Below, in pieces: positions 1,852 through 33,682 of a stretch of 64,000 bases of DNA. The notes below the pieces were generated by a model. It saw only the letters and a list, made by a program, of their open reading frames with translations, was not told the origin of the DNA and ran no database searches. A program made the translations under genes and the position numbers. This DNA comes from an uncultured Caldisericales bacterium (GTDB lineage Bacteria; Caldisericota; Caldisericia; JAAYUI01), in contig CAYYJO010000002.1 in NCBI GenBank assembly GCA_964472265.1, forward strand, positions 2,002 through 66,001. Direction: 5' to 3'. Positions within the stretch are counted from its first letter, which is position 1. Every line of letters starts with the position of its first letter.

Positions 1852-2460
1852 ATGGGCTGGCTGCCTTCTCCAAATCAAACCAGATGGCTGGCGGCTGGGC
1901 TTTGTACAGGCCTTGCCGTCGGTCTTGTTGTCGGGATAGCCATTTCAGGCATCAGACCGGCAACAAGGGAGAACTCCATAAACCAATCAAAATCTGCGGC
2001 ACAATCGCTTGGCTGGGATCAACTGGACAGCGTCTACAAATCCTGCCAGGCATTCACAATCTCAAGAAATCCAACACTGTACAAGAACCTTCTGGCTGCA
2101 ATCGGTGACAGGTTCTCAATCCTTGCCAAGACACCAGTCCAACCGAAAGTAGTCGATTTGGAGAAGCCGACAGAAACCAAATCGTCAATAGTGGCCAAGC
2201 CAGTGATTTCATCGGTTGCGCCGACTCCTGCACCATCAAACGGCAAATACCTTGACGGAACCGGAGAAATAGACATCAATTCTGCAACATTGGAGCAAAT
2301 AGACGCCGTTTACCGAATGTCAATAAATACTGCAAAAGACATCTTCAATTACATCAGAACCAAAGGCCCGATCAAAACCTTCGATGAACTGGATTCAATT
2401 TCTGGCGTCGGGACAAAAACCATCGAAAAACTGAGGTCTGCTTTCCACATCAGCCGATGA
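1852..2460 (+). CDS. comEA: Competence protein ComEA (helix-hairpin-helix DNA-binding)
   Basis: N-terminal TM segment followed by a C-terminal tandem HhH motif ('INSATLEQIDAVYRMSINTAKDIFNYIRTKGPIKTFDELDSISGVGTKTIEKL'). It lies directly upstream of comEC, with a 4-nt overlap. Confidence 0.75.
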   Translation: MGWLPSPNQTRWLAAGLCTGLAVGLVVGIAISGIRPATRENSINQSKSAAQSLGWDQLDSVYKSCQAFTISRNPTLYKNLLAAIGDRFSILAKTPVQPKVVDLEKPTETKSSIVAKPVISSVAPTPAPSNGKYLDGTGEIDINSATLEQIDAVYRMSINTAKDIFNYIRTKGPIKTFDELDSISGVGTKTIEKLRSAFHISR

Positions 2461-4787
2461 TGAAGCCTGTTCAGTCAACTGCGATTGCATTTGCTACAGG
2501 TTGTGCGCTTGGGATGATTCTTGGCATTCCACTGATTTACCTCATCCCTTTGCTGTTGGTTTCTGCTTCAATCTGGATTGTTCCAAAGTTTGATCACCTA
2601 CCAAGACATATGCTTTTCTTCCTTATCGCCGGTATGATTCTTGTTTCCTACGCAAGGTCAGGGACCCAGGAATTTCCAGTTTCAGGGTCAAAATATTCAG
2701 TCAAAGGAACAGTGACTTTCGTCAGGGAGTCCAGCCCAAAAAGGTCAGTCTTTGAAATGAAGGTCAAAGAAGCTAACCCATCAGGCCTTCCGCTGACTAT
2801 GGCTCGGTGCTACACCATCCAGAACGACAAACTCAAATCCGGCGATGTTGTCGAATTCACAGCCTACACGAGGACGCCGGCGACAGCAACCAACCCTGGA
2901 GAGTTCGATTTTGCCCAGTATCTGATGACAAATGATGTAGGAGTAATGCTTACATCTTCCGAAATGCCCAGGATAGTAGGCTCGGTAGTGTCACCTTCTG
3001 TTGTTGCTGACAGAGTAAGATCGGCATTCGATTCCGTGTTCGTGGCCAACTTACCACAGAGACAAGCTGATCTTCTTGATAGCATGGTTTTTGGCAGACG
3101 TGAGCTCCCGGATGACATCTCAAGAAATTTTTCAAGAACCGGAACAAGCCACATAGTCGCAGCCTCCGGTTTCAACATTTCAATCGTCACAATCACCATG
3201 CTTTACCTTATGCTCTGGCTTACTGGCAACAAAAAGGCTGCCCTGATCTGCGCCATTGTCATTGCCATCTGTTATGCAATGATCGCCGGATTTTCTCCAT
3301 CGGTTTCTAGGGCGCTTTTGATGGCTGTACTTTCTATCGGCGCCCAACTTTTTAACCGCAGGCACGCAACATCTTCAGGGCTTGCCCTGTCTGTCATCAT
3401 TTTGTTGGCCATAAATCCATTGTGGATCGCTCAGGCCGGTTTTCAGCTCTCATTCCTGTCTACCATGTGCCTGTTCGTAATCGCACCGGTCTTGTTTGAA
3501 CTTGAAAAGAAAAAACCATGGCCGGTCAAGATTCTTACCCTGATTCTGATCACAACAGTCATCCAATTGCTGGCGTTGCCTGTTTTGGCAACCAACTTCC
3601 ACTCAATTTCGCTGGTTTCACCAATTGCTAACCTTATTGTCATTCCTGTTTCAACCATTCTGACGCCTTTGGGACTGCTGGCCTCAGTTTTCGGAGTCAT
3701 CCTGCCACCAATGGGCACTCTGCTATGCCTTATCGCTTATCCGATCCTTATTATTCTGGACAAGGCCATTGAAATCCTTGCACAGCCTTCATGGGCATTG
3801 TTGTCGATTGGAAATGTTTCCGCCTATGCCTGGATTTTCTACTACATCAGCGCAGGTTTTGGGCTGGCTTTGATCACCAAAGCCAAAGCGTTCACTCAGA
3901 GAAACATGAAACTGGTGGCCGTTACAGTTATTGCCGTCTCGATGTCTGTATTGTGTGGAATCGCCTCCTCGGGCTCGTCAAACAACGGCCAGATAACGTT
4001 CCTTGACGTTGGTCACGGCGATGCGATATTCATTCAGACACCTTCAGGAAAAACCGTTCTTATTGACGGCGGAGGAGGCGCCCCCTACCTGCCGTCCGGT
4101 GATACAGGCGCAAGAATTGTCATTCCTTTCCTTAGGTTCATGGGTATCAATCATCTCGACTATATCATCGCCACACATCGCGATCAGGATCACATTGGTG
4201 GGCTTACTGCGGTCATTAATGAATTTCCGGTCGGTGAGATTTTCGATTCAGGCGTTAAATCCGACACCTTCGAAGCAAGGGATTTTGAACTATCCATAAA
4301 AAACAAGCGCATCAAAGCAACAACTCCCAGCCCCGGACAGGAACTCCCGATTGACCCAAAAACAAAAATCATCTTTCTTGGCCCACCAAATCCTTTGAAT
4401 CAAGGTCAAACAAAAGCTGATGTAACAAACAACAACTCAATTGCCTGCATTTTTGAGATGGATGGAGTGAGAATTCTTTTTGGCGCAGACATACAGACTG
4501 AGGCAATGGTTCAGGAAATTGGCCTTGGAAGTCTTATAAAAGCAGACATTGTCAAGATTCCTCATCACGGTGGCTACACACCCGGTTTCCCCAGATGGAT
4601 CGATCAGGTGCAACCCAAACTGCTTGTAAATTCAGATTCAGCAAACGATGGAACCGGCATCGATACAAGGATTGAAGCAAGTATTTTTGAGCGAAACATT
4701 CCGATTGTATCGACGGCCGACATGGGAGCTATCACAATTTCAATCGATAAAGGCGCCTGGACGGTTGAAGGTTTTACCAGAAAATAA
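2457..4787 (+). CDS. comEC: DNA internalisation competence protein ComEC/Rec2 (polytopic membrane plus metallo-beta-lactamase domain)
   Basis: Many TM helices and a C-terminal MBL fold ('FLDVGHGDAIFIQTPSGKTVLIDGGG', 'IATHRDQDHIGGL', 'KIPHHGG'). Confidence 0.85.
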   Translation: MMKPVQSTAIAFATGCALGMILGIPLIYLIPLLLVSASIWIVPKFDHLPRHMLFFLIAGMILVSYARSGTQEFPVSGSKYSVKGTVTFVRESSPKRSVFEMKVKEANPSGLPLTMARCYTIQNDKLKSGDVVEFTAYTRTPATATNPGEFDFAQYLMTNDVGVMLTSSEMPRIVGSVVSPSVVADRVRSAFDSVFVANLPQRQADLLDSMVFGRRELPDDISRNFSRTGTSHIVAASGFNISIVTITMLYLMLWLTGNKKAALICAIVIAICYAMIAGFSPSVSRALLMAVLSIGAQLFNRRHATSSGLALSVIILLAINPLWIAQAGFQLSFLSTMCLFVIAPVLFELEKKKPWPVKILTLILITTVIQLLALPVLATNFHSISLVSPIANLIVIPVSTILTPLGLLASVFGVILPPMGTLLCLIAYPILIILDKAIEILAQPSWALLSIGNVSAYAWIFYYISAGFGLALITKAKAFTQRNMKLVAVTVIAVSMSVLCGIASSGSSNNGQITFLDVGHGDAIFIQTPSGKTVLIDGGGGAPYLPSGDTGARIVIPFLRFMGINHLDYIIATHRDQDHIGGLTAVINEFPVGEIFDSGVKSDTFEARDFELSIKNKRIKATTPSPGQELPIDPKTKIIFLGPPNPLNQGQTKADVTNNNSIACIFEMDGVRILFGADIQTEAMVQEIGLGSLIKADIVKIPHHGGYTPGFPRWIDQVQPKLLVNSDSANDGTGIDTRIEASIFERNIPIVSTADMGAITISIDKGAWTVEGFTRK

Positions 4788-4817
4788 AAAAGACCCCCGA
4801 ATCCGAAGGTCTTTTTA
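4786..4817. terminator. Putative bidirectional intrinsic terminator between convergent comEC and transketolase genes
   Basis: A5-AGACC-cccgaatccgaa-GGTCT-T5: a short stem flanked by A-run and T-run. Weak stem. Confidence 0.4.
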
Positions 4818-4831
4818 TGTCAGCTGAAAGA

Positions 4832-5764
4832 TTATTTTCCCAAAAGTCTCTTTGCAACGGCAAAAATTTCGTCACGGTTGCACTTGAAGTGGGCAAGTAG
4901 CTCTTCCGGTTCGCCGGATTCACCGAAGCGGTCTGCCATGGCCACAAATGCCATTGGCGTTGGCAGCTCTTTCCCAAGCGCCATCGCGACCATCGAGCAG
5001 AGTCCACCGTAAATCTGATGTTCTTCGGCGACCAGCACTTTCCCTGTTTTCTTTGCAGAGGTCAAAAGTGTAGCCGTGTCGAGGGGTTTTACGGTGTGCA
5101 TGTTGATGATTTCGCAATCAACGCCTATTTTTGCAAGTTCTTCCGAGGCTTTCATCGACTCAAAAACCATGACACCGTTTGCTACGATTGTGAGATCTTT
5201 TCCTGATTTGATGATGTTTGCCTTGCCAATTTCGAAAGGAGTTGCGTCATCGGTGATGGTCTGGACAGGAGCTCTCCCAAAACGGATGTAGGCTGGGCCA
5301 GGTCTGTAAGCTGCAGCCATCGTTGCTTTTTTGGTTTCAACGTGGTCGCAGGGAACAAGAACGGTCATGTTCGGAATCGAAGCCATGATTGCAATATCTT
5401 CGAGCGCCTGATGGGTTGCACCGTCCGGGCCAACTGAGATGCCTGCGTGTCCGCCTATATTAACGTTGAGATTGCTGTAGGCAACCATTGTTCTCATCTG
5501 CTCCCAGGCCCTGCCGGTCACAAACACGGAATAACTTGAGGCAAACGGGATTTTTCCGGCAATCGCCAATCCTGCTGCAACACCGATCATATTTTGTTCG
5601 GCAATGCCCATCTCAAAGAACCTGTCAGGAAACTTCTCCTGAAAACGGTTTGAAGAGGTCGATTTTGCTAGGTCTCCATCGAGAGCGACGATCCTTGGGT
5701 CTTTCAAGCCAAGTTCGATGAGACCGTCTGAATATCCGTATCTTGTAGCTTTCGGTTCAGCCAT
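4832..5764 (-). CDS. Transketolase, C-terminal (pyrimidine-binding/TKC) subunit
   Basis: 310 aa with 'GIAEQNMIGVAAGLA' and 'PCD' motifs typical of the C-terminal half of split transketolases. No N-terminal TPP-binding subunit is adjacent. Confidence 0.8.
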   Translation of the reverse strand: MAEPKATRYGYSDGLIELGLKDPRIVALDGDLAKSTSSNRFQEKFPDRFFEMGIAEQNMIGVAAGLAIAGKIPFASSYSVFVTGRAWEQMRTMVAYSNLNVNIGGHAGISVGPDGATHQALEDIAIMASIPNMTVLVPCDHVETKKATMAAAYRPGPAYIRFGRAPVQTITDDATPFEIGKANIIKSGKDLTIVANGVMVFESMKASEELAKIGVDCEIINMHTVKPLDTATLLTSAKKTGKVLVAEEHQIYGGLCSMVAMALGKELPTPMAFVAMADRFGESGEPEELLAHFKCNRDEIFAVAKRLLGK

Positions 5765-5772
5765 TGTTCCTC

Positions 5773-7590
5773 CTAGTCGACCGTTATGGTCTTCGAGACG
5801 TTCCTAGGATAGTCTGGTGAATATCCTTTTTCAACACACAGGTGATAGGCAAACATCTGCATGAAAACTGTGGCAATGACTGGCACGATTGCGTACTGAC
5901 TGTACGGAAGCTCGTAGAATACTGTCGAATTCTGCTGCAGAGCCTCGTGGGGAGGAGCAACGGTTATTGCTGTTCCAAGCCTGCAGGTGACTTCGTTTAT
6001 GTGAGAGAGGGTCATGTGCGAATCCTCGGCAGTGCTCAAGTAGAAAACAGGATAATCCTTTGTCACAATCGCCAGTGGGCCATGCTTGAACTCGACTGAA
6101 TCCATGCCTTCACAGTGGGCGTAGGAGATTTCCTTGACTTTGAGCGCTCCTTCAATGGCCGAAGCATAGGTAATGCCGTGACCAAGGCTGTAGAAATCAG
6201 TATTATCCTTATACTTCCTGGCAAGCTCGTGAGCCTGGCCATCCATTTTTTGAATCGTATCCCTGATTGCTTTCGGGATGAGTGCCAGATCGTCTGGAAG
6301 TGTGCCAGCCCTGCCCTTGAGCTTTGCAACTTCTGTGGCTATTCCAAGGAACAACACCGCCTGATTGGTGAATGTTTTTGTGGCAGCCACAGCAATTTCA
6401 AGGTTTGAAACCAACGGCAGATAGCGCCTTGATCTCATCATGAGCGTTGAGCCGATGACGTTTACAATTCCAAGAACCCTGTTTGCCATGCCCTTTTCGG
6501 TGAGCATGTTCAAAACGTTGATCAAATCTTTTGTTTCACCTGACTGAGAGACAAGCACGAACAAGTCATCAGGTCTCACACCTTCACCAAACTGCTGGAG
6601 GAATGAGCCGGCAACCACGGGGAAAGTGGCGCAACCGGCAAGTTTGTTGAGAAAATAGGAACCCATGACGCAGGCATTGTAGCTTGAGCCGGAACCGACA
6701 AGATAAACATGGTTTGCATCGGCGAGCTCTTCGGCAAACGGAACAAGATCCTCGGAGTTTTTCAGGTAGTCAAGCAGAGCCTGTGCCCTCTCCGGCTGTT
6801 CATCGATTTCCTTTGCCATGAAGAACGGGAACTCACCTTTTGATGCAGTTTCGGCCGACATGCCGGTTTCAATCGGGTCACGGTCGATCTTTTTGCCAGT
6901 CTCAATGCTCCTGATCTCGTATTCCTTTTCGTCAAATTCGACGTACTCGCCGTCATTTAGCGGGATGATTCTCTGTGTTAGGGGAAGGATCGATGGAAGG
7001 TCTGATGAGGTGCAGATGAAGCCGTCGCCAACGCCGAGGTAAAGCGAGCTGCCCATCTTCGTGCAGTACATCTTTTTGCCGGCAAGCGAACAGATTGCGT
7101 AGGCATAGTCGCCTTTCAGGATGTGCCTCGCCTCCCTGATTGCCAGATCCATGTCGCCATGCCTGTTATACTGCTCTTCAACCACGTGCACGACCACTTC
7201 GCCATCGTTTTCACCCCTGAAGATGTGGCCTTTTGCTGTGAGTTCGCGTCTGAGCTGGATTGTGTTGACGATGTTGCCGTTGTGTGCGCCGACAATTCTG
7301 CCTCTCGTGTCGAAGTGTGGCTGGGCGTTTCTCTGAGCCGGAACACCGAAAGTTGCCCAACGGAGCTGAGTTATTCCTCTGTTTCCGACTAGTTCCGTAA
7401 AATTGAGACGCTTGGCAACGTCATCAACCTTGCCGACGTCCTTTCTCAGATCGGCTTCTCCGTTTTTGGTGATGGCAACGGCGCCAACCGAGTCATAGCC
7501 ACGATAGATCAGGCTTCTGGCAGCGTTTGTCAGTACCTGCCCCATCTCTTTCTTGTCGTCAGCGTAAACAACACCGAATATTCCACACAT
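5773..7590 (-). CDS. glmS: Glutamine--fructose-6-phosphate aminotransferase (isomerising)
   Basis: N-terminal 'MCGIFGVV' Ntn-glutaminase nucleophile and two SIS domains, 605 aa. Confidence 0.9.
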   Translation of the reverse strand: MCGIFGVVYADDKKEMGQVLTNAARSLIYRGYDSVGAVAITKNGEADLRKDVGKVDDVAKRLNFTELVGNRGITQLRWATFGVPAQRNAQPHFDTRGRIVGAHNGNIVNTIQLRRELTAKGHIFRGENDGEVVVHVVEEQYNRHGDMDLAIREARHILKGDYAYAICSLAGKKMYCTKMGSSLYLGVGDGFICTSSDLPSILPLTQRIIPLNDGEYVEFDEKEYEIRSIETGKKIDRDPIETGMSAETASKGEFPFFMAKEIDEQPERAQALLDYLKNSEDLVPFAEELADANHVYLVGSGSSYNACVMGSYFLNKLAGCATFPVVAGSFLQQFGEGVRPDDLFVLVSQSGETKDLINVLNMLTEKGMANRVLGIVNVIGSTLMMRSRRYLPLVSNLEIAVAATKTFTNQAVLFLGIATEVAKLKGRAGTLPDDLALIPKAIRDTIQKMDGQAHELARKYKDNTDFYSLGHGITYASAIEGALKVKEISYAHCEGMDSVEFKHGPLAIVTKDYPVFYLSTAEDSHMTLSHINEVTCRLGTAITVAPPHEALQQNSTVFYELPYSQYAIVPVIATVFMQMFAYHLCVEKGYSPDYPRNVSKTITVD

Positions 7591-7593
7591 GTC

Positions 7594-8202
7594 TCACTCC
7601 TTGTCGATTGAAGTTCTGCCCCTGATTGCCTCAGAGAGCGTGACGGTGTCAGCGAATTCAATTTCTGTTCCAATTGGGATGCCTGAGGCTATCCTGGTTA
7701 TGACGCATCCTGAACCTTCAAGTTCACGTCTTATGTACATGGCCGTTATGTTGCCTTCGTGTGTGAGGTTTGTGGCAAGGATCACTTCCCGGATTCCATC
7801 GCCTTTCACCCTTTTGATGAGCGCAGCAATGTTGAGTTTTTCTGGCCCAATTCCCTGTGCCAGTCTGATTGTTCCACCGAGAACGTGGTATACGCCCCTG
7901 AAAGTGCCAGCCTTTTCAATGGCAAGCAAGTCTCTTGCCTCTTCAACAACCATAATCAAGGCGTGATCGCGCTTGGCATCGATGCAGACCCCGCACTCAC
8001 CACCATCACTTAGGTTGTGGCAGACAGGGCATCGTTTGACTTTTTCGTGAAGAGTCGCTATTGCATTTGCTATTTCCTGAGCCTCGGACGGTTCCATGTT
8101 CAGGATGAAAAGTGAAAGCCTTTCAGCTGACTTTGGGCCGATTCCAGGCAGTTTGTAGAGGTTGTCGACAAGTTCCTGGAAAGCCCTGACAGGGTAGCTC
8201 AT
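7594..8202 (-). CDS. recR: Recombination protein RecR
   Basis: 'LPGIGPKSAERL' HhH motif, C4 zinc finger 'CPVCHNLSDGGECGVC' and a Toprim domain. It sits in the conserved dnaX-ybaB-recR order. Confidence 0.9.
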   Translation of the reverse strand: MSYPVRAFQELVDNLYKLPGIGPKSAERLSLFILNMEPSEAQEIANAIATLHEKVKRCPVCHNLSDGGECGVCIDAKRDHALIMVVEEARDLLAIEKAGTFRGVYHVLGGTIRLAQGIGPEKLNIAALIKRVKGDGIREVILATNLTHEGNITAMYIRRELEGSGCVITRIASGIPIGTEIEFADTVTLSEAIRGRTSIDKE

Positions 8203-8489
8203 TGGTTGAGCAGTTCCATCGTCTTTCTTGCTGCTTCGTTTCTTGAGTCTGCCTGTGCGCTTGATATTGCCTGCAGGATGAGTTTTGAGAGGTCGTCGGG
8301 TTTAAGTCTTATGGCCTCATCATTGAGCTTCATTCCGATGACTTCCAGCTTGCCATTGGCAACCACTGTCACTGTTGCGTCACCTTTTTTCATTTCCTTC
8401 TCGAACTTCATAGCCGAGAGTTCTTTCTCAAGTTTTTGCTGTTGGGCTCTGAGTTTGTTTGCGTCCTTGAGCATGTCCATGAATCCCAT
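8199..8489 (-). CDS. ybaB: Nucleoid-associated protein YbaB/EbfC
   Basis: 96 aa with an 'MGFMDMLKDANKLRAQQQKLEKEL' start, placed between dnaX and recR. Confidence 0.8.
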   Translation of the reverse strand: MGFMDMLKDANKLRAQQQKLEKELSAMKFEKEMKKGDATVTVVANGKLEVIGMKLNDEAIRLKPDDLSKLILQAISSAQADSRNEAARKTMELLNQ

Positions 8490-10078
8490 CAGTTCACCTC
8501 TGCCTTTCCGCCGAACAGGTTGAATGCCTGCTTCACCTGTTCATCTTCCAATATGTCTTTTGCTTCAATTTTTTGCAATTTGACGACAATCTGCATCTCC
8601 GAACCATAAACTTTTTGTGCAATTGTCTTTAGTTTGAGTATGTTTGCCGGTTCTGTGAGCCTTGCTTTTTCAAATTCTGCGTCCGAGGGGAATGTGAGCG
8701 ATATTGTGCCGGATTCCTCAGTCAAGCCTATGAGTCTTGAAAGGAATGCAAAGAGAATTACGTCGGATTCTTTGGCTGCCGATTTGAATCTTTCCACAGG
8801 ATTTCCGTCAGTTGATGGTGCAGCAACAACGGTCTCGGGCTGCTGGGTTTGTGGCTCCGTCGGCTTTTGTTCATCGATTGGCTGGGTTTTGGGGGGTTCT
8901 GGTTGTGGCGGAGGTGGAGCTGCTGGTTTGGGTTGAGATTCAGATTTTGATTTTGCTACATGTGCTTCGGAGACTGGCCTTGCAGGTTCGCCTGAAATCA
9001 AATCCAGCACTGCCATTTCAAGTGAAGCCAGAGCCGAGAAGGCATACTTCATCTGAGAGACAAGCTCCCTGAATTTGACCTCTATCCACCTTAATTTGTC
9101 AAAATTAAAAGATTTAGCTTCCTGCTCAATCAAAGCGACATCGATGGCGTAATCGGAGGCCAGATCAGACTTTGTCATGCCAATGGCGGCGAGCATGAGA
9201 ATATGGAATCTGGAAAGCAGGTCTTTCGCCATTTGCTCAGGCTCCCTGCCATCACGGTAAGCGTTCCTGATCAATTCTATCGTTTGTTTGGACTGATTGC
9301 CGGCGATGCCCATTACAAGGCTATGGACAAGTCGTTCACCGGTCAGGCCAAGCATGGCTGCAACATTTTCATTGTAAATTGCACCTTCAGTAAACGAAGC
9401 AATCTGGTCGAGCATCGACTCGGCGTCCCTGAGTGAACCGTTGCTCTCGATTGCAATCATTCTCAGGGCTTCGTCTGTTATGTTTATGTTTTCGGCATCG
9501 GAAATCTTGCGAAGAAGCTGTACCTGACTGTCTGTTGGGATGCGCTTGAGGTCAAACCTCATACAACGACTCAGGATGGTAACGGGAATTTTGTGAGGTT
9601 CGGTGGTGGCGAGCAGAAAAATAACGTGTGGAGGCGGTTCTTCGAGGGTCTTCAGCAGTGCGTTGAAAGCTTCGTCAGTGAGCATGTGAACTTCATCGAT
9701 GATGTAGACTTTGTATCGGGACATTGCTGGCGCAAACTTCACTTTTTCGCGAAGCTCACGAATGTCGTCCACTCCCCTGTTTGAGGCTGCGTCAATCTCT
9801 ATGACGTCCAGACTAGTGCCGTCCTTGATTGCCACACAGCTTGCACAAACCTGGCAAGGATTTGGCGTTATTCCTTCCTTGCAGTTGACCGATTTTGCAA
9901 GGATTCTGGCAAACGAGGTTTTTCCGGTTCCCCTCGGCCCGCAGAAAAGGTAGGCATGGGAAATCTTTTGTGCTTTGAGCGCGTTTTTGAGCGTTCTTAC
10001 AACAAAATCCTGCCCGATGATCTGGTCGAGATCCTGTGAGCGCCACTTTCTGTATAACGAAACGTAGTTTTCAGACAC
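8489..10078 (-). CDS. dnaX: DNA polymerase III subunits gamma/tau
   Basis: Walker A 'GPRGTGKTS', 'LYRKWRSQ' N-terminus and a zinc module 'CQVCASC'. The longest ORF starts at a GTG at 10144. The conserved N-terminus ('SENYVSLYRKWR') fits better with the in-frame GTG at 10078, which is reported here. Confidence 0.8.
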   Translation of the reverse strand: MSENYVSLYRKWRSQDLDQIIGQDFVVRTLKNALKAQKISHAYLFCGPRGTGKTSFARILAKSVNCKEGITPNPCQVCASCVAIKDGTSLDVIEIDAASNRGVDDIRELREKVKFAPAMSRYKVYIIDEVHMLTDEAFNALLKTLEEPPPHVIFLLATTEPHKIPVTILSRCMRFDLKRIPTDSQVQLLRKISDAENINITDEALRMIAIESNGSLRDAESMLDQIASFTEGAIYNENVAAMLGLTGERLVHSLVMGIAGNQSKQTIELIRNAYRDGREPEQMAKDLLSRFHILMLAAIGMTKSDLASDYAIDVALIEQEAKSFNFDKLRWIEVKFRELVSQMKYAFSALASLEMAVLDLISGEPARPVSEAHVAKSKSESQPKPAAPPPPQPEPPKTQPIDEQKPTEPQTQQPETVVAAPSTDGNPVERFKSAAKESDVILFAFLSRLIGLTEESGTISLTFPSDAEFEKARLTEPANILKLKTIAQKVYGSEMQIVVKLQKIEAKDILEDEQVKQAFNLFGGKAEVN

Positions 10079-10174
10079 AGCATAAAAGTATAGATGGTAA
10101 GGGTTGGAAGTCAACAAATCATCACAGTAAGGACATTTCAACACATTGTTGACTTCGATGTGTGGTTTGGGGCG

Positions 10175-10203
10175 TTGACAATAAAATAACGGTCAGTTAT
10201 GAT
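10175..10203 (+). promoter_or_regulatory. Sigma-70-like promoter (TTGACA-17nt-TATGAT) for the downstream lipoprotein gene
   Basis: Perfect -35 TTGACA (10175-10180), a 17-nt spacer and -10 TATGAT (10198-10203). An RBS 'AAGGGTGG' follows, ahead of the ATG at 10236. Confidence 0.45.
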
Positions 10204-10235
10204 TTTTATATCAAATCTTTAAAGGGTGGCAACAA

Positions 10236-11678
10236 ATGCATAAGCTTACTTTCATTCTGGCAATAATGGTTATGCTTTCAGGGTGCATCATCCCTCCTCG
10301 TTCAGGCAAATGGGAGTGCTTGTCAGGGACAAAGACTGAATATCTGGTTCCGTCAAACTCAAACATTCACTACAGCAAACAATGGACTTACGGCAATTGG
10401 AAGCCCGTCTCAATCGTCGGGGATCTCGAAGCCTCAAAGCAGCTCCAGAACTGCAAGATAAATGACAGACAAGTAAAAAGAACTGCCGGATCATGGATTT
10501 ATGCAAGTGACCCAAAATTCTCCTGGAACAATCCGCCAATTTTTAAATCCGAAACTCCAAAACCAGCTCCAGGCTCAACCATCCCCCCGGAACCACCAGA
10601 TGCAATCTACCCATCCATTTACAGACATTTCTTCAATGCCGACGAGATTTCTTCCGGTACACTCTACGTAAGCGTTGTCGGTTCAGTGGATGTTTATATG
10701 GATCCACCAGTTGGGACGGCACTGATCAATAATCCAAAGATAATGTCAAAATGCTATCTTGGCCGATCAAACTCACTCAATCAGATGGCGATTGCTTTAG
10801 AAAAAATCTACCCTGGAACGCACTGCCTATACTTTGTCCACAAGGCAAACAACAACATCACTTTCTTCGGTCTAAAATACAATCTCGAACTTGCCGAAAC
10901 CGTCTCCCAGACCAGCGACTGCCTTTGGCCAATCATGTCGGGTGGGTCACATTATACTGTCAGCAATGGCTCAACTGAGTTTCTGGAAACGGAAAATGAC
11001 TGGAACAACAAAAACGACAAGAGATACCCGAAAGGTATGACACCTGCAGGAACACCCTTTGGTGGTGAGTGGATTTACGGAGTGTGGTCGCCTGTTTCGA
11101 TCATTCCATGGACGGCTGCAGACAATTATTGGGGTGGTGCCGTTGGCGGGAAACCCTGGTTAAAACAGATGGATCAAGGAGCTTGCTGGATTACCCACAA
11201 ACCTCATTTCATTCCAGGTGACCCAACCTGGGGTCGTGAAATCACATGGACGAACGTCCCAACAGGTTATACAAGCATATACAGACACACCTTCTCGGTG
11301 GACAAGGAGTCATCGGCAAATCTTTACATCTTCACAAACGACATAGTCGACGTCTATTTCGATCCGGTTGAACCCGAACCTGCACGGTGGATTTCAAACA
11401 CGCTTATCGAGTGGCAGGGACCAAGCCCTCTCCCAATGAATCACCCATGGCAAGATCAGCCCTCATACTACTATGTCGGGAGAGCCGACAAACAAACGCG
11501 AGGCATGAAGATAGATCTATCAAACCTCATAACGCCTGGCACTCATACGCTTTATTTCGTGCACAGGAACTCATCCGAACTCAAACCGCTGCCATCAAAA
11601 GATTATTATGGTCTACTGTTCACACTTTACATGGAATCAGATTCTGACTATCCAGGCACCGTAAAACCAAGAAAATAA
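10236..11678 (+). CDS. Hypothetical Trp-rich lipoprotein with an internal tandem duplication of a ~200-aa domain
   Basis: Signal peptide plus lipobox 'LSGC'. The two halves share motifs: 'WTYGNWKPVSIVGD' and 'WIYGVWSPVSII'; 'SIYRHFFNADEISSGTLYV..VDVYMDP' and 'SIYRHTFSVDKESSANLYI..VDVYFDP'; 'PGTHCLYFVHK' and 'PGTHTLYFVHR'. No known catalytic motif. Confidence 0.6.
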   Translation: MHKLTFILAIMVMLSGCIIPPRSGKWECLSGTKTEYLVPSNSNIHYSKQWTYGNWKPVSIVGDLEASKQLQNCKINDRQVKRTAGSWIYASDPKFSWNNPPIFKSETPKPAPGSTIPPEPPDAIYPSIYRHFFNADEISSGTLYVSVVGSVDVYMDPPVGTALINNPKIMSKCYLGRSNSLNQMAIALEKIYPGTHCLYFVHKANNNITFFGLKYNLELAETVSQTSDCLWPIMSGGSHYTVSNGSTEFLETENDWNNKNDKRYPKGMTPAGTPFGGEWIYGVWSPVSIIPWTAADNYWGGAVGGKPWLKQMDQGACWITHKPHFIPGDPTWGREITWTNVPTGYTSIYRHTFSVDKESSANLYIFTNDIVDVYFDPVEPEPARWISNTLIEWQGPSPLPMNHPWQDQPSYYYVGRADKQTRGMKIDLSNLITPGTHTLYFVHRNSSELKPLPSKDYYGLLFTLYMESDSDYPGTVKPRK

Positions 11679-11762
11679 AAACAACCGGACTTTATAACTT
11701 GCATTCAAGCCTGGAATGTGGCAAAATTCTCCTAATGTTTACATTTCCGGAGGTTTGAGAGC

Positions 11763-13682
11763 ATGAACAAGTATTACGTAACGACGCCAATATACTACAT
11801 CAACGATGACCCGCACATCGGCCACGTCTACACCACCATGGCTGCAGACATCATCGCACGATACAGAAAGAGCTTGGGCGCAGAAGTCATGTTTCTCACC
11901 GGAACAGATGAAAACGCTGTAAAAATTGACCGTGTTGCCAAACAGAAAGGCATGTCCACTCAAGATTTCGTTGATCAGCTTGCAACCAAGTGGAAAGCAT
12001 ACTTCAAGGATTTTGGCCTCGAATTCAACGATTTCATCAGGACAACCGAAGACAGGCACAAGAAAACCGTCGTAGCCATGATCAAGCAACTGTACGATCA
12101 GGGCGATATCTACAAGGGGAAATACGAAGGATGGTACTGCGTTCCTTGCGAAACCTACTTCCTCGAACAGGATTTGAAGGACGGCAACTGCCCGGACTGT
12201 GGCAGACCCGTTGAAAGAATCTCTGAAGAAAACTACTTCTTCGCCCTCTCAAAGTACAAAGAAAAACTCCTCAAATACTACGATGAACACCCGGACTTTG
12301 TGCTCCCGAAATCACGTTACAACGAGATTTACTCAATCCTCAAGGGCGACCTGAGGGACAAGTCATTCACAAGAACCGGGATGGAGTGGGGCATCAAGGT
12401 TCCATTCGATCCTGACCACGTTGTGTACGTCTGGGCCGATGCACTTTGCAATTATCTGACAGCCGTGGGTTACATGGACGACAAGGAAAAGTTCAACAAA
12501 TTTTGGCCAGCAGACGTTCATCTCATAGGAAAAGACATCATCATTTTTCACTGCATCATCTGGCCGGCGATGCTCATGGCTCTTGGTCTCCCACTCCCAA
12601 AGCACATCTTCGCTCACGGCTGGTGGACATCCGAAGGCAAGAAGATGAGCAAATCAATCGGAAATTTTGTGGTTCCTCACCTTGAAGTCGAGAGAATCAT
12701 CCAGTCAACCGGCACATCGAAAGCTCTTGCGCAGGACGCATTCAGGTATTTCCTGTTCAGGGAGCTGCCGTTTGGAGAAGATGGCGACTACTCGAAAACC
12801 AACTTTGAAACCCGCTTCAACGCTGACCTTGCAAACGATCTTGGCAACCTGCTCAACCGATCTTTGAAGATGCTTCAGAAAAACTTCGGTGGAAAGGTGC
12901 CTGAAGGCAAAACGCTGCCTGACCTTGAAGCCAAATTCAATGAGACGTTGTCACTGTTCCGTGAGAAATTTGAAAATTTCCAGTTCTCGCAGGCTCTTGA
13001 AGTACTCTGGGGCTACGTCAATGCGCTCAACACAAGCATCGAAGTCAATAAACCATGGGAACTTGTAAAACAGGGCAAAACTGAGGAACTGGCTAATCTT
13101 CACTACTCGCTCATCGACGGAATCGCCCTCATCTCGGGACTCCTCTACCCGTTCATGCCAAACACCGCTTGTGAGTTGGCAAAGGCAACCGGCCTTGCCA
13201 ACCCGCCATCCATTGACGGACTAAAAAACGGACTTCTGAGACCAGGCACCAAGACTCATGAAACTCCGGTCATGTTCCCAAGAATTGAGAAGAAAGTTCA
13301 AAAAGAGGAGATCAAACCGGCACCGGTTCAGTCAGTTCAGCAACCACATCCCGCAGATGAGTTGATCCCAATTGAGGAGTTCCAAAAATTCAAATTCAGG
13401 ATTGGCAAGGTTTTGACGGCAGAAAAAGTGAAAGACGCCGACAAGCTTTTGAAGCTCACAGTCGACATCGGTACCGAAACCAGAACCGTTGTGGCCGGCA
13501 TCGCCATGTGGTATCAGCCTGAAGACCTGATCGGCAAACTGATTGTGGTTGTGGCAAACCTCAAACCAGCCAAACTTCGCGGCATCATGTCCGAGGGAAT
13601 GCTCATGGCTGCAACCGGTTCCGAGTATGTAGCAATACTTTCACCAGAAAAGCCGGTTGAGCCAGGATCAATTGTCAAATAA
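11763..13682 (+). CDS. metG: Methionine--tRNA ligase with C-terminal EMAPII/Trbp111-like tRNA-binding domain
   Basis: 'HIGH'-type motif 'PHIGHVYT', zinc knuckle 'CVPCETYF..CPDCG', KMSKS 'KMSKS', and a C-terminal 'KFRIGKVLTAEKVKDADKLLKLTVDIG' tRNA-binding domain. Confidence 0.9.
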   Translation: MNKYYVTTPIYYINDDPHIGHVYTTMAADIIARYRKSLGAEVMFLTGTDENAVKIDRVAKQKGMSTQDFVDQLATKWKAYFKDFGLEFNDFIRTTEDRHKKTVVAMIKQLYDQGDIYKGKYEGWYCVPCETYFLEQDLKDGNCPDCGRPVERISEENYFFALSKYKEKLLKYYDEHPDFVLPKSRYNEIYSILKGDLRDKSFTRTGMEWGIKVPFDPDHVVYVWADALCNYLTAVGYMDDKEKFNKFWPADVHLIGKDIIIFHCIIWPAMLMALGLPLPKHIFAHGWWTSEGKKMSKSIGNFVVPHLEVERIIQSTGTSKALAQDAFRYFLFRELPFGEDGDYSKTNFETRFNADLANDLGNLLNRSLKMLQKNFGGKVPEGKTLPDLEAKFNETLSLFREKFENFQFSQALEVLWGYVNALNTSIEVNKPWELVKQGKTEELANLHYSLIDGIALISGLLYPFMPNTACELAKATGLANPPSIDGLKNGLLRPGTKTHETPVMFPRIEKKVQKEEIKPAPVQSVQQPHPADELIPIEEFQKFKFRIGKVLTAEKVKDADKLLKLTVDIGTETRTVVAGIAMWYQPEDLIGKLIVVVANLKPAKLRGIMSEGMLMAATGSEYVAILSPEKPVEPGSIVK

Positions 13683-14446
13683 TGCAAATGTTTGACACAC
13701 ATGCGCATCTCGATCTTGTTGACTACAAAGATGAGAGACCGCTTGTAATAAAACGTTCGTTTGAGCAAGGCATCTGCGGAATTGTCAATGTCGGGTTTGA
13801 TCTTGCTTCGTCTATCAGGTCAATCGAGCTGGCAAGAAACAATGAATTTATCTGGGCTACAGTTGGCATCCACCCTCATGAGGCAAAAACCTGGAACAAC
13901 GACATGGCCGACAAAATAAGGTCTCTTGCCAAAGAAAACAAAGTAGTGGCAATAGGTGAGATCGGGCTTGACTACTACAGGAACCTGTCCGAACCAAGCC
14001 AGCAGATGAAAGCATTTGAAGATCAGCTGGAGTTGGCCAAGGAACTGGACATGCCAATTGTCATTCACAATCGTGATGCTTCCGGCGATGTAGTTCGGAC
14101 GCTTCAGAAACACAAACCAAAAAACGTTCTCCTGCATTGCTTTTCAGCCGATACAATGGTTGCAAGGTGGATTTTTGACCAGGGGTACATGGTTTCTTTC
14201 GGCGGTAGCATAACTTATCCAAGAAACGAATGGGTTTGGGAAGTGGTTCGCATGGCACCTGAAGACAGTTACGTTCTCGAAACCGACTGCCCCTATCTTT
14301 CTCCGGTTCCGCTAAGAGGCAAAAGAAATGAACCGGCATACATCAGACATACGCTTGTAAAAGTTTCTAATCTAAGAGATAAGCTTCCAGAAGAAATAGC
14401 AGTTACAACAACTGCAAACGCGAAGAGATTTTTCAGGATTGCCTGA
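13682..14446 (+). CDS. tatD: TatD family metal-dependent DNase
   Basis: 'MFDTHAHLD' start and 254 aa. The conserved metG-tatD linkage is present, with the start overlapping the metG stop (ATAATG). Confidence 0.85.
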   Translation: MQMFDTHAHLDLVDYKDERPLVIKRSFEQGICGIVNVGFDLASSIRSIELARNNEFIWATVGIHPHEAKTWNNDMADKIRSLAKENKVVAIGEIGLDYYRNLSEPSQQMKAFEDQLELAKELDMPIVIHNRDASGDVVRTLQKHKPKNVLLHCFSADTMVARWIFDQGYMVSFGGSITYPRNEWVWEVVRMAPEDSYVLETDCPYLSPVPLRGKRNEPAYIRHTLVKVSNLRDKLPEEIAVTTTANAKRFFRIA

Positions 14447-16438
14447 TCAATCGCCAGGAATCGTTATTTCAATATTTGGTGTGTTTGGTTTGTATTCGAT
14501 CAATGCACCGAAAACCCAGGCCATGAAATCGATTGGCACACATGTCCTGCTTTCCTTGATTGTTGCAGGATAGAACATGCTCTGGATGGATGGTTTTCCA
14601 TCGCCCAGCTGAATGACGCAGGCTGATTTGCCAATGCTAAAGGTGACTTTGACCTTGCGTTTTTCGTATTCAAGCGTGGTCTTTTTGGTCGCCGAGTCCC
14701 AGGAAACCGAGCAACCGAATGCATCCTCAACAAATCTTACCGGAACCATCGTTACAATTGCCGGAGGAGGCGATTTCCACGGCGCAACCGCAAGTGTGAT
14801 CGGGGCTCCGCTTAGGAATGCTGTTTTGGAACCAACGGTCATAGTTACATAAGTGCTGGGATTTCTTATAATGTTCACACTCACATTGACGTTTGCATTG
14901 CCACCATTTGTATTGATCCTGAGAATGGCATTGTAAGTGTTCGCCTGCTGATTTTTTGCATCGAATGTTACAGTAATTTCCTTGAATTCACCACTGTTGA
15001 GCGTGAATTTACCGGGATCAACCGTTATCCAAGATCTTGATGAAAGAATTTCAACATCAAGCTTTCCGCCACCCTTGTTTTGAATGTCGAATGTCTTTGT
15101 TGTGGTTTTATTAACCGGGAGAGATGTGACGACAATTTCACTAATCTCAAGTCCAAGTTCGGGGGCTGAATCGCCGTTTGCCAGCGAATAAATGAAGCCG
15201 TCATCGGCACCGATGTATACGTTGTTTAGCGCAATGGCAGGTGACGATCTGATTGGATTATCAATGATTTTTGCAGAAAGGGTGGCGCCTGTTGAAAGTC
15301 TTACCACCATCATCTTGCCTTCAGTTGTTGTGAAATAGACGTAATCGCCACCGATTGACGGGGTTGAAACAATGTTCTTTTTTACGTTTGTCGACCAGAC
15401 AAAATCGCCTTTTGCCTCGGTGATGCAGTAAAGTGTTTTTTCTGCGGCGAAGACGATGTTTCCTCTGGCGATTGCTGGCGAAGATTCAATTTTTTTATCG
15501 CCAACATCATATTTCCAAATTGTTGAGCCATCCCTGTCGCTTAGGGCATAGACTGAACCGCTCTCGGTTGTCACAACAACTTTTCCAGCTGAATAAGCGG
15601 GGGAGGAATTGATGGCGCCGTTTAGTTTAACTTGCCATTTGACCGTCGGTTTTTCGCTCTGCTGAACAATGCCCTTGTTTTTGTCATACGGCGGCTTCAT
15701 TTCGATGCAATAGAAGTTTTTTGAGGAGCTCCCGAAGTACAGGCAGTTGCCGTAGAAAGCAGGACTGCTCCTTATAACTCCATCAGTTCCGAGATCGGGA
15801 AGTCTCCATCTGATTGCCGGATCTCTATTTTTCAAATCGAAGCCATAAAGATAGCCATTGCTTGCGCCAACAACTACGATCTGGAAGGTTTCTGAAATTA
15901 CTGGCGAAGTGGTTACCGATGCCGATTGGATCGCAAGGTTGTACCTATGGACAAGCCTGCCAGAATCAGCGTTAAGCACCAAGAGGTTTTGACCCCAGGG
16001 CATATAGATTTTGCCATCAACCGTTGGCGAGATGGTCAGCTTTGCCTTGGGAAAATCAATTGCTCCGTTTGGCCAGGGCTTCTCTCCATTCTCGGTGTAG
16101 TCTGCCAGCCAATTCGACTGGTTTTCAGGGAATTTCCACTGAATCGTGCCGTCTGATGCGTCCAGAGAGTAAAGAACGCCTTTACCTTCGCCTTCAGTGG
16201 CCACAAAGCAATCAGTGCCGTAGATGACAGGTGAAGCCGATATTTCTGATTTGAGGTTCTGCTTCCAGTTGACCTTCATGACAGGGGGCTCAACAAATTG
16301 GTTTGTGGCCGAGGTTCTCATGTAATTGCCCTTAAATGTAAACCAATCGTTGCCAGCGCCCTTTGCAGGCACAGCAAGACTAGTCAACAATGCAATCGCT
16401 AGGGCAATCTCAATCCTCAAGCGGTTGGACCCAGCCAT
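14447..16438 (-). CDS. Secreted PQQ-like beta-propeller repeat protein with Ig-like region and C-terminal CuAO_N-like domain
   Basis: Signal peptide followed by repeated 'LYSLDASDGTIQWKF'-type PQQ/BamB-like blades. The C-terminus reads 'TMTVGSKTAFLSGAPITLAVAPW...MVPVRFVEDAFGCSVSWDSATKKTTL', a CuAO_N-like domain. Confidence 0.65.
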   Translation of the reverse strand: MAGSNRLRIEIALAIALLTSLAVPAKGAGNDWFTFKGNYMRTSATNQFVEPPVMKVNWKQNLKSEISASPVIYGTDCFVATEGEGKGVLYSLDASDGTIQWKFPENQSNWLADYTENGEKPWPNGAIDFPKAKLTISPTVDGKIYMPWGQNLLVLNADSGRLVHRYNLAIQSASVTTSPVISETFQIVVVGASNGYLYGFDLKNRDPAIRWRLPDLGTDGVIRSSPAFYGNCLYFGSSSKNFYCIEMKPPYDKNKGIVQQSEKPTVKWQVKLNGAINSSPAYSAGKVVVTTESGSVYALSDRDGSTIWKYDVGDKKIESSPAIARGNIVFAAEKTLYCITEAKGDFVWSTNVKKNIVSTPSIGGDYVYFTTTEGKMMVVRLSTGATLSAKIIDNPIRSSPAIALNNVYIGADDGFIYSLANGDSAPELGLEISEIVVTSLPVNKTTTKTFDIQNKGGGKLDVEILSSRSWITVDPGKFTLNSGEFKEITVTFDAKNQQANTYNAILRINTNGGNANVNVSVNIIRNPSTYVTMTVGSKTAFLSGAPITLAVAPWKSPPPAIVTMVPVRFVEDAFGCSVSWDSATKKTTLEYEKRKVKVTFSIGKSACVIQLGDGKPSIQSMFYPATIKESRTCVPIDFMAWVFGALIEYKPNTPNIEITIPGD

Positions 16439-17306
16439 TCTCTAAACAAACCTCCGATAGTGTCTGTACGGCCAAATCATACTCTTCCGGCGTAATTCTT
16501 CTGTCCAGACCAACAATTTGGCTGGCATGGTGTGCCGGAAAGTACTGGCTCATTAGAGAAATATACACATCTTTGATATTTTTTGCAATCCATTCAAGAA
16601 CATCGCTTGAACCCGACCTGTTTTCCGGCAACACAAGATGTCTGATCAGAAGGCCTTTTCTTGCGATGCCATCAACAATCTCCAATTGCCCCACCTGACG
16701 ATGCATCTCGAGGACGGCAAGCCTGTTGTTTTCAACATAATTTGGCACACCCGAATTTATTTTCGCCATCTCGTCGTCGCCATACTTCATGTCTGGCATG
16801 TAAATCTGTATTACGCCTTCAAGTAGCCTTAAGACCTCGATTTTTTCGTAGCCTGAGTCGTTAAAGAGAATAGGAATCGTTAACCCGTTTGCTCTGGCGA
16901 TGTTGATGGCATGGGCAATTTGTGGGATATAATGGGTGGGTGTTACAAGATTTATGTTATGGCACTTGCGTTTCTCAAGATTTAACATAATTTTAGCCAA
17001 ATCGGGCACGTCCACCTCATAGCCGTTGTCCAACTGTGAGATCTGGAAATTCTGACAAAATTTGCACGACATTGTACAATGTGAAAAAAATATAGTCCCG
17101 GAGCCGTTTATTCCAGATATCGGAGGTTCTTCGCCATGATGTGGCCCGTTTGAGTTTATCTTGACAGTAGCCCCTGCCCTGCAGTAGCCTTTTTCTCCAT
17201 TCAATCTGTCGGCATGGCACTCTCTGGGGCACAGTCTGCATGGCGACATCATGTCATAGAGCTTTTTGATATTGTCATCCATTTCAGGAATTATCAATTC
17301 TTCCAC
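16410..17306 (-). CDS. Radical SAM protein, PflX-like (putative activating enzyme family, COG1313-like)
   Basis: N-terminal 'CRLCPRECHADRLNGEKGYC' Cys cluster plus the canonical radical-SAM 'CTMSCKFCQN' (CxxxCxxC). Its 3' end overlaps the start of the beta-propeller gene by 29 nt. Confidence 0.75.
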   Translation of the reverse strand: MEELIIPEMDDNIKKLYDMMSPCRLCPRECHADRLNGEKGYCRAGATVKINSNGPHHGEEPPISGINGSGTIFFSHCTMSCKFCQNFQISQLDNGYEVDVPDLAKIMLNLEKRKCHNINLVTPTHYIPQIAHAINIARANGLTIPILFNDSGYEKIEVLRLLEGVIQIYMPDMKYGDDEMAKINSGVPNYVENNRLAVLEMHRQVGQLEIVDGIARKGLLIRHLVLPENRSGSSDVLEWIAKNIKDVYISLMSQYFPAHHASQIVGLDRRITPEEYDLAVQTLSEVCLENGWVQPLED

Positions 17307-17404
17307 GCCTCAATCATAATCAATGGGCGAACCGCAGGCAAGGAAGACAAGGTTGAACCGGAACTGGCCGTTCCAAGTATTAGAGTAAACCCAGGAGGTT
17401 CAAA

Positions 17405-32531: not shown

Positions 32532-33641
32532 CTAGAACGATTCGTCAATGTAGCAATCGACGCCCATATCTGCAACGATTATTCGATTGGCCTGAAATTT
32601 TATCTTCCTGAAAAAACGTGGATTATGGAAATCATGAAAGAAGATCTCGTAATCCTTGTTCTGTTTACCTGTTATTGGATCAATTTTTATCAACAACTGA
32701 GTCCCTGGACAGGGGCAGACCACGTTAAAAACTGAATTTTCGGAGATTAATGGCGTGTCTCCGAGTTTACTCAAAGACCATTGAAAAATCCAGTTTTCGC
32801 AGCCAAAGGCATCAAGCTTGTGGCTCCACTCACTGACTTTTGATGCGATGCACAACAGATTTCTTGAGATTCCTAGCTCGACGATTTCAGTGTTGTACTC
32901 CATCGAGAAAATCTCCTTGCCTGTGTTTGCATCGAGGCAAATCGCCCTTGTGGAAGGATCATTTTCAGTTGGTCTTGTGGAGAGCATTGCAATACCTTTT
33001 TGTATCCCGTAACACCACATTCCCGAATCAGGTATTTTGTAATCCCATAGAGAAATCCCAGTGTGCGGGTCGATAAGGGAAAGGGAATCCATCTTGATCA
33101 GCACGCATCCGGCATAGATTCTCCCAAGGATATAGGAAGATTCAAATTTTGACAGCATTCTACCGGTTTTATGCTCGAACACCATGACGCCTTTGTCAAC
33201 ATTAACAACAAGAAGATTATCTTTTACTTCGACCCAGACCCAGTTTGCTTTGATCGGGTCAGTGAATTCGTAATTCCAAATCTGCCTGAGGCTCAAATCT
33301 GTACAAACCAGGGTATAATGTGATTCTGATTCATTCGTAACATAAAAAAACCTGTCATCGCAAGCTTGAATTGAATCTGGCAAAACGTTTGGCTCCATCG
33401 ATAACAGCTCAGTATCCAGTTGCTCACCCGAACAATATCCGAATTTTCCAAGCTTCAGCGTTTCTTTGGTTTGATCCCTGTAAACGACAATAACGGTGTT
33501 GGATGTATAATGAACGCTGGAAGCTAAATAATCAGTTTTGTAATTGTTGTGCCAGAGCGTTTTCAAACCGGTAGCGTTTGCAGGTGATACCAATGATAAC
33601 AAACTTGCCATGCACATCACGCCCGAAATCAGCTTCTTCAC
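32532..33641 (-). CDS. Hypothetical secreted protein, possible PQQ/beta-propeller-like fold
   Basis: Signal peptide 'MKKLISGVMCMASLLSLVSPANA' and 'ICLDANTGKEIFSMEY' / 'LIDPHTGISLWDYKIP' PQQ-like blade motifs. GC is lower than in flanking genes. Confidence 0.5.
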   Translation of the reverse strand: MKKLISGVMCMASLLSLVSPANATGLKTLWHNNYKTDYLASSVHYTSNTVIVVYRDQTKETLKLGKFGYCSGEQLDTELLSMEPNVLPDSIQACDDRFFYVTNESESHYTLVCTDLSLRQIWNYEFTDPIKANWVWVEVKDNLLVVNVDKGVMVFEHKTGRMLSKFESSYILGRIYAGCVLIKMDSLSLIDPHTGISLWDYKIPDSGMWCYGIQKGIAMLSTRPTENDPSTRAICLDANTGKEIFSMEYNTEIVELGISRNLLCIASKVSEWSHKLDAFGCENWIFQWSLSKLGDTPLISENSVFNVVCPCPGTQLLIKIDPITGKQNKDYEIFFHDFHNPRFFRKIKFQANRIIVADMGVDCYIDESF

Positions 33642-33682
33642 ATATCAACCATTACAGCAAAATGGTTTAAATATCAATAGAA

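Follow-up and report, generated by a model that had tools for sequence, protein, structure and literature searches.

Introduction

PA14 domains, which are generally regarded as carbohydrate-binding, occur in anthrax protective antigen, GH3 beta-glucosidases, yeast Flo/Epa adhesins and bacterial autolysins. The galactose-binding-domain-like superfamily likewise includes the carbohydrate-binding modules (CBMs) CBM6/35/36/61 and discoidin-type lectins, together with the ligand-binding domain of ephrin receptors. Among the lipoproteins of Bacteroidota, the surface glycan-binding proteins (SGBPs) of the SGBP-B type are lipid-anchored, non-catalytic, multi-domain beta-sandwich proteins, and SGBPs are highly divergent between strains. 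Here we describe a gene encoding a predicted lipoprotein that appears to combine features of these systems. It lies between dnaX and metG in a 64,000-nucleotide stretch of DNA (hereafter the window) from an uncultured Caldisericales bacterium (contig CAYYJO010000002.1).

Caldisericota are abundant in anaerobic digesters and almost uncultured, and to our knowledge their envelope proteins have not been studied by experiment. On balance, the models and comparisons presented below favor the interpretation that the gene encodes a surface-anchored, tandem lectin-like lipoprotein that binds glycans, and that it occupies an exchangeable locus in this lineage. No new kind of molecular system is revealed. 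What is new is the sequence family and its lipid-anchored tandem architecture, while a lectin-like or CBM-like surface protein is a known type.

Two homologous repeats with a predicted beta-sandwich fold

An earlier note on this DNA, made by reading the letters without database searches, described the product as a Trp-rich lipoprotein composed of two homologous halves of ~200 amino acids (aa). Both parts of this description are borne out. A BLASTP comparison of the two halves aligns residues ~46-219 with residues 275-466 at 29% identity (E = 2e-15), and a profile-profile comparison of 14 N-terminal with 14 C-terminal halves yields a probability of 99.8% (E = 4.7e-30) over 173 columns. The three motifs quoted in the note are present in both halves: QWTYGNWKPVSI and EWIYGVWSPVSI for the first, SIYRHFF...VDVYMDP and SIYRHTF...VDVYFDP for the second, and PGTHCLYFVH and PGTHTLYFVH for the third. 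The protein contains 18 Trp residues (3.8%), and Tyr makes up another 5.8%.

The N terminus has the features of a type II signal peptide, with an n-region M-H-K, an h-region LTFILAIMVM and the lipobox L-S-G-C17, which fits the pattern [LVI][ASTVI][GAS]C. The lipobox had also been recognized in the earlier note, and its Cys17 proves to be invariant in all 14 aligned homologues. Weak matches to the lipoprotein-family models LPAM_1 and NF038104 cover residues 1-19. Lipidation of Cys17 is therefore predicted from sequence features.

AlphaFold2 models of the whole protein (predicted local distance difference test, pLDDT, 72.2; predicted template modeling score, pTM, 0.77) and of repeat 2 by itself, the latter built with a 20-copy alignment (pLDDT 72.8, pTM 0.77), are composed of beta-sandwiches. 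The top-scoring and commonest structural matches are carbohydrate-binding domains. Matches include dozens of accessory domains from glycoside hydrolase (GH) families GH2, GH78 and GH35, as well as CBM6, CBM35, CBM36, CBM61, a fungal lectin and PA14-containing proteins (3abz, 5a3l, 7pjj). Ephrin-receptor ligand-binding domains and carbohydrate-binding modules of phage tails were also matched. When the two-domain model was searched against the PDB with Foldseek, the tandem-sandwich matches were weak and heterogeneous (template modeling score, TM, < 0.25) and were uninformative. We predict from these models that each ~200-aa module is a very divergent galactose-binding-domain-like or PA14-like beta-sandwich (jelly roll).

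A possible link to PA14 is also seen at the sequence level. Exhaustive searching of 1.84 billion representatives with phmmer retrieved five representatives of the family and two other matches. One of these, P0017, is an autolysin-like protein with four PA14 repeats, an SH3 domain and a glucosaminidase domain, and it is the only significant match outside the family that looks genuine (whole-library E 4.9e-5; 5-15 bits per repeat, summed over the four). Each of the four PA14 repeats in P0017 aligns in register with the family segment dptWGreitwtnvPtg-ytsIYRhtFsvDkessanLyiftNDivdVYfDp, and hhalign comparison of a 20-copy domain profile with a four-sequence profile of these repeats gives a probability of 88.6% over 52 columns. 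The other match, P0016 (955 aa, with an eight-fold repeat; E 1.7e-18), is probably spurious, as it lacks any coherent Pfam domain and its match is confined to residues 395-443 in a low-confidence loop.

Because the PA14 repeats of P0017 align in register with the central motif, the blocks SIYRHxF...VDVYxDP and GTHxLYFVH are most likely fold-defining and correspond to the core hallmark strands of PA14-type sandwiches. The earlier note could match the conserved blocks to no known catalytic or binding motif, and on the present reading they are most likely not a new motif of either kind. Residues invariant in 20 of 20 domain copies (W, W, Y-R, D...D-P, G, G-H, Y, H) are located in the PA14-aligned segment and the beta-strand blocks that follow it (W, YR, D...DP, G.H..Y..H), and they are most simply viewed as fold determinants.

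The resemblance to PA14 (PF07691) extends to a beta-sandwich of similar size, to an in-register core of the form W-G..P..(F/Y)S.I(F/Y)R..F......L.(V/I)...ND.V.VY.D(G/P) followed by a strand containing G-T-H, and to the occurrence of tandem copies in extracytoplasmic proteins. However, PA14 spans ~140 aa, whereas the repeats of this family span ~200-230 aa and carry extra N-terminal strands and helices as well as long variable loops. Unlike PA14 proteins, the window protein has no catalytic or adhesin partner domain, its repeats constitute the whole mature protein, it has a predicted lipid anchor, and most members of its family bear Cys-rich CxC motifs after each repeat. Similarity to the N-terminal sugar-binding domain of GH2 (PF02837) and to the galactose-binding-domain-like superfamily amounts to only 10-17% identity with no signal at the sequence level. 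The window protein also differs from GH2 enzymes in lacking a TIM-barrel catalytic domain, being instead a stand-alone tandem on a lipid anchor. The SGBP-B-type lipoproteins share its predicted general architecture, and one (7kwb) is among the Foldseek matches, but the match is weak (TM < 0.2). Moreover, the gene has no polysaccharide-utilization locus, SusC/D or glycosidase neighbors, and its host is probably without an outer membrane.

A small family restricted to Caldisericales

Pfam, NCBIfam, PHROGs and PADLOC match the window protein at its signal peptide only, and a Pfam scan of all 14 members finds nothing beyond that peptide. Neither the single protein nor the 20-copy domain profile retrieved any PDB sequence at E <= 10. 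The statement in the earlier note that no family is recognizable thus holds for sequence and not for fold, where a known class is predicted. A confident match to a characterized family, which that note had named as evidence against novelty, exists at the level of fold only. Formal membership in PA14 fails, and because no member matches the Pfam model we regard the sequence family as new and its fold class as known. The more general point is that a gene without a sequence family may still have a known fold.

Fourteen proteins were recovered by a word-indexed search of 5.8 billion clusters. A large-database search for single-domain or out-of-phylum relatives with the 20-copy domain profile returned the same family only. 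A scan of genome contigs with the single protein gave no match, and an alignment-based scan found 11 loci, 10 of them titled Caldisericales, Caldisericia or Caldisericota and one titled 'uncultured bacterium'. All searches together yielded ~15 relatives, and every named one is a Caldisericales/Caldisericia metagenome bin, several from sludge digesters. This distribution, which the earlier note had suggested checking, shows that the family is small and restricted to the Caldisericales lineage.

All full-length members are two-repeat lipoproteins of 480-540 aa, each locus has a single copy, and the window contains no paralogue. The full-length open reading frame (ORF) is intact across three clades, to 32% identity and with 70 invariant columns. 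Most homologues (P0001-P0014) also conserve the Cys motifs SDCGW...CxC between the repeats and LCCKEExCxC at the C terminus (alignment columns ~325-340 and 605-620). Metal binding and disulfide formation are both possibilities for these motifs.

Allele replacement between dnaX and metG

Genes in this part of the window are ordered comEA-comEC; transketolase, glmS, recR, ybaB and dnaX (-); the lipoprotein gene; metG and tatD; and then surface proteins with Cu_amine_oxidN1 domains. The arrangement in which the gene lies between dnaX and metG is also found in five other species or strains. The closest relative of the window is the locus L007 (CAZXEH010000006.1), to which it aligns by blastn with 91.5% identity over positions 2336-10092 and 89% over 11739-19634. 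Between these segments no alignment is obtained save for 112 bp at 70%. This dissimilar cassette contains the -35 regions of both predicted divergent promoters, the lipoprotein gene and most of its 3' spacer. On the left it is bounded by the dnaX -10 element, and on the right it ends 24 nt before the metG ATG.

Proteins encoded in the flanks are 95-99% identical between the two genomes, with synonymous divergence (dS) of 0.11-0.60 and nonsynonymous divergence (dN) of 0.004-0.02 for eight genes with at least 95% protein identity. The lipoproteins are 42% identical, with a saturated proportion of synonymous differences (pS) of 0.83 and a dN of 0.52. Because synonymous sites are saturated, the window and L007 alleles must be far older than the genomes that host them, which indicates replacement by recombination and not merely fast protein evolution. 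In a gene tree, the L007 allele falls outside a clade formed by the window and more distant species, in conflict with the relationships based on the flanks. The L007 lineage is the recipient of a foreign allele of lower G+C content (GC), because its allele alone departs from the composition of its locus (38.9% GC, with 32.9% at third codon positions, versus 46.9% for the locus), while the window allele and all others fit their own loci. A chimeric assembly was ruled out as the source of the L007 allele, since an independent JGI assembly carries this allele between the same flanks.

A milder trend is seen between L006 and L022, whose genes are 86% identical (pS 0.80) and whose flanks are 96-99% identical (dS 0.7-1.1). 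In a further allele, which shares 88% identity with the window gene, one nucleotide is deleted at gene position 738, outside any homopolymer, and the frame is split into overlapping ORFs of 267 and 213 aa. This allele is present at L017 (769-2210), L018 (218-1659) and L019 (173-1614), with the gene 100% identical across these loci, and comes from three sequencing runs (SRR29400112, ERR14947319 and SRR34774206). Where it can be measured, dN/dS of the lipoprotein gene is ~0.09-0.11.

Conserved neighborhood was rejected as a clue to function, since the three clades of the family place the gene in three different contexts. An aldehyde dehydrogenase gene adjoins it in two of the three clades, but on opposite sides and with ~28% identity.

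Unequal divergence from L007 is also observed for other genes of the window. The PQQ/BamB-like beta-propeller protein encoded at 14447-16438 (-), which is 663 aa long, contains an Ig-like domain and ends in a Cu_amine_oxidN1 domain, shows a dS of 1.35 at 90% protein identity, where its neighbors show ~0.3-0.5 at 96-98%, and its gene may be a second surface-protein gene hit by recombination. The comEC-like competence gene (2457-4787, +) is 92% identical to its L007 counterpart with a dS of 0.60, its neighbors being 99% identical with a dS of ~0.3. Compared with L006, it is 57% identical and its neighbors are ~90% identical.

Proposed function and alternatives

Export, lipidation by Lgt, cleavage by LspA (signal peptidase II) and membrane anchoring are general steps of lipoprotein biogenesis. 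The window protein would accordingly be exported by Sec, receive a diacylglyceryl group on Cys17 from Lgt and be cleaved by LspA, and the mature lipoprotein would sit on the outside of the cytoplasmic membrane, anchored in its outer leaflet. Caldiserica were described as lacking lipopolysaccharide genes (PMC5007114) and have been counted with the lineages in which the outer membrane was lost and SLH/CsaB retained (bioRxiv 10.1101/2021.05.31.446380). Because Caldiserica are taken to have lost the outer membrane, the lipoprotein would face the wall or the cell surface. Its two homologous modules would pack in a defined arrangement, and the resulting surface protein would be lectin-like, binding glycans bivalently without catalytic activity. 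Exposure at the surface, for instance to phages, could then cause whole-allele exchange by recombination, and sometimes inactivation, in the lineage that carries the gene between dnaX and metG. Lipidation, the surface location, glycan binding and the selection behind the turnover are the parts of this proposal that we infer.

Several observations weigh against it. The structural models are of moderate confidence and were built on only 14-20 sequences. The link to PA14 comes from four near-identical repeats of one protein, and the Pfam PA14 model, which has a gathering score of 24 bits, matches 0 of 14 members even at E <= 10. The neighbors of the gene are housekeeping genes, and no glycoside hydrolase, transporter or polysaccharide-utilization gene adjoins it. 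The window protein has 7 Cys residues where its homologues have 11-15, and the Cys motifs after its repeats are nearly all gone. Finally, the gene evolves no faster or slower than its neighbors, approximately, in the two other clades, those of P0011 and P0007 (64-67% versus 50-84% in one, and 94% versus 92-97% in the other), and the turnover is therefore specific to the dnaX-metG lineage and not a property of the whole family.

The ordinary rate of the gene in these two clades would also suit a wall-organizing protein whose modules bind peptidoglycan or the secondary wall glycopolymer of the cell itself, and which tethers the membrane to the wall or positions wall enzymes. Allele swaps would then follow strain-specific wall-glycan chemistry and not outside pressure. 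The gene is apparently single-copy, and in each of the three clades it keeps a stable syntenic place amid housekeeping genes. Glycos_transf_4, Epimerase_2 and an EPSP_synthase-family gene, all of wall-precursor or wall-polymer families, share its co-directional run in the P0011 clade, and its sole remote sequence relative is a wall hydrolase that joins PA14 repeats to SH3 and glucosaminidase domains. However, the frameshifted allele found identical in three datasets suggests that the gene is dispensable, neighborhoods differ among clades without a consistent functional linkage, and the protein has no known wall-binding domain (SLH, LysM, SH3 or Cu_amine_oxidN1), although nearby surface proteins do carry Cu_amine_oxidN1. 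We consider a wall-organizing role unlikely on this evidence. A little less likely again is a jelly roll that binds protein or peptide, as in ephrin receptors, CUB domains and ColG collagen-binding domains, which might serve in cell-cell contact within filaments or adhesion to syntrophic partners. The lack of an adjoining carbohydrate-active gene fits this idea, but the best and most frequent structural matches are carbohydrate-binding domains, the only sequence-level link is to PA14, and the protein has the Trp and Tyr richness that is typical of sugar-binding surfaces.

A new type of enzyme, in which the invariant Arg, Asp, His and Tyr of each repeat form a catalytic or metal site, seems improbable. 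Y-R, D...D-P and G-x-H-x-x-Y-x-x-H are indeed invariant in all 20 domain copies, and the CxC motifs of homologues could bind metal, but these motifs are dispensable in the window protein. Moreover, the invariant residues fall in predicted beta-strands aligned with the structural hallmarks of PA14 (FS..F / DDG...DG), their i/i+4 and i/i+6 spacing would put the side chains 13-20 Å apart if strand geometry is assumed, and both repeats keep them equally, as would be expected of fold determinants. Still more improbable is that the ORF is decaying or non-functional and that its promoter really serves metG-tatD. Such decay would agree with the frameshifted allele, with the loss of Cys motifs from the window allele and with the lack of a terminator before metG, but it is contradicted by the full-length frame conserved over three clades, by the low dN/dS and by the intact ribosome-binding site and lipobox.

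The favored interpretation of a surface-anchored, lectin-like lipoprotein could be carried further. The family might form the main exposed recognition surface of these cells, for example as a phage receptor or as an adhesin for partners or substrates, with the dnaX-metG interval acting as a dedicated hotspot that swaps promoter-plus-gene cassettes between species. We regard this extension as doubtful. Even without it, the gene provides a concrete, conserved and apparently single-copy surface marker for one order, with predicted glycan binding, and whole-allele replacement is documented between genomes that are ~91% identical in their flanking DNA. It could thus be of use in typing strains from digester metagenomes and in studies of phage receptors or adhesion.

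Predicted promoters of the lipoprotein gene and dnaX

Coordinates of the lipoprotein gene, its parts and adjoining elements are collected in Table 1. The TTGACA-17-TATGAT sequence that the earlier note took to be the gene's own promoter is the best match to the consensus in the window, and the only one on either strand that reaches at least 11/12. Since 100 shuffles of the window give a mean of 1.1 matches of this quality, the match by itself is not above chance, and the promoter-poor character that the same note ascribed to the genome cannot be judged from consensus matches. The site is nonetheless credible because of its position in the 91-nt gap between dnaX and the lipoprotein gene, ~26 nt upstream of AAGGGTGG and the ATG, and because a TTGAC[AT]-16/17-TA[TC]nnn pair is kept in 8 of 8 syntenic loci (L006, L007, L017-L022). 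L007 retains the pair although the rest of its intergenic DNA cannot be aligned with the window. The site is thus predicted to act as the promoter of the lipoprotein gene.

The spacer of 84 nt that separates the stop codon from metG contains no terminator-like site, and a hairpin located there is not significant (z = -1.2). For this reason metG-tatD may be driven by the same promoter. High independent expression of the lipoprotein gene, as the earlier note proposed, is unsupported given the lack of a terminator, and consensus matches cannot decide it. Rfam models gave no match in the window, and no riboswitch was found between the gene and metG.

Table 1. Features of the lipoprotein gene and its surroundings, in window coordinates.
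Feature	Position	Strand	Description or basis
dnaX promoter-like site, TTGACT-16-TATACT	10087..10114	-	Conserved in the same syntenic loci as the lipoprotein promoter
Replaceable cassette without DNA similarity to L007	10093..11738		blastn, dN/dS, GC, independent assembly
Predicted sigma-70-like promoter: -35 TTGACA 10175-10180, 17-nt spacer, -10 TATGAT 10198-10203	10175..10203	+	11/12 consensus match
Ribosome-binding site AAGGGTGG, 6 nt ahead of ATG	10222..10229	+	Direct sequence reading
Lipoprotein gene ORF	10236..11678	+	480 aa
Predicted type II (lipoprotein) signal peptide MHKLTFILAIMVMLSG followed by C; Cys17 codon 10284-10286	10236..10286	+	Weak LPAM_1 matches, invariant Cys17
Repeat 1, residues ~28-221	10317..10898	+	Predicted galactose-binding-domain-like / PA14-like beta-sandwich
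Inter-repeat connector, residues ~222-240	10899..10955	+	C...CxC motif in homologues; only Cys229 in the window protein
Repeat 2, residues ~241-468	10956..11639	+	Predicted fold as repeat 1; long low-confidence loop 380-410
C-terminal tail and stop codon	11640..11678	+	YMESDSDYPG where homologues have CCKEExCxC

The mechanically called dnaX ORF begins with a GTG at 10144, and the dnaX promoter-like site falls inside the resulting extension (10076-10144, -). Relatives' dnaX genes are called at 528 aa. Because the conserved site lies within the longer ORF, the true start of dnaX is probably the GTG near 10078. A start at this position, a few nucleotides from the predicted transcript start, would make the dnaX mRNA nearly leaderless.

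Other predicted surface and exported proteins

At least three large predicted surface proteins in the window end in Cu_amine_oxidN1: those encoded at 14-1849 (+) and 17405-19942 (+), and the PQQ beta-propeller protein described above. Two of the three also have Glucodextran_B/Ig domains. C-terminal Cu_amine_oxidN1 domains recur in homologous loci of other Caldisericales, and this domain may be the cell-surface anchoring module of the lineage.

Another lipoprotein is predicted from a 580-aa ORF (58236-59978, +) that has the lipobox MGNIWVVLVGFIFLVS-C, lacks a Pfam match and lies in a stretch of lower GC (43.6%). The part of the window with the lowest GC (40.9%) is 32532-34387 (-), where two adjoining ORFs of 369 and 234 aa without Pfam matches lie beside a subtilase gene, the 369-aa ORF (32532-33641) having a signal peptide.

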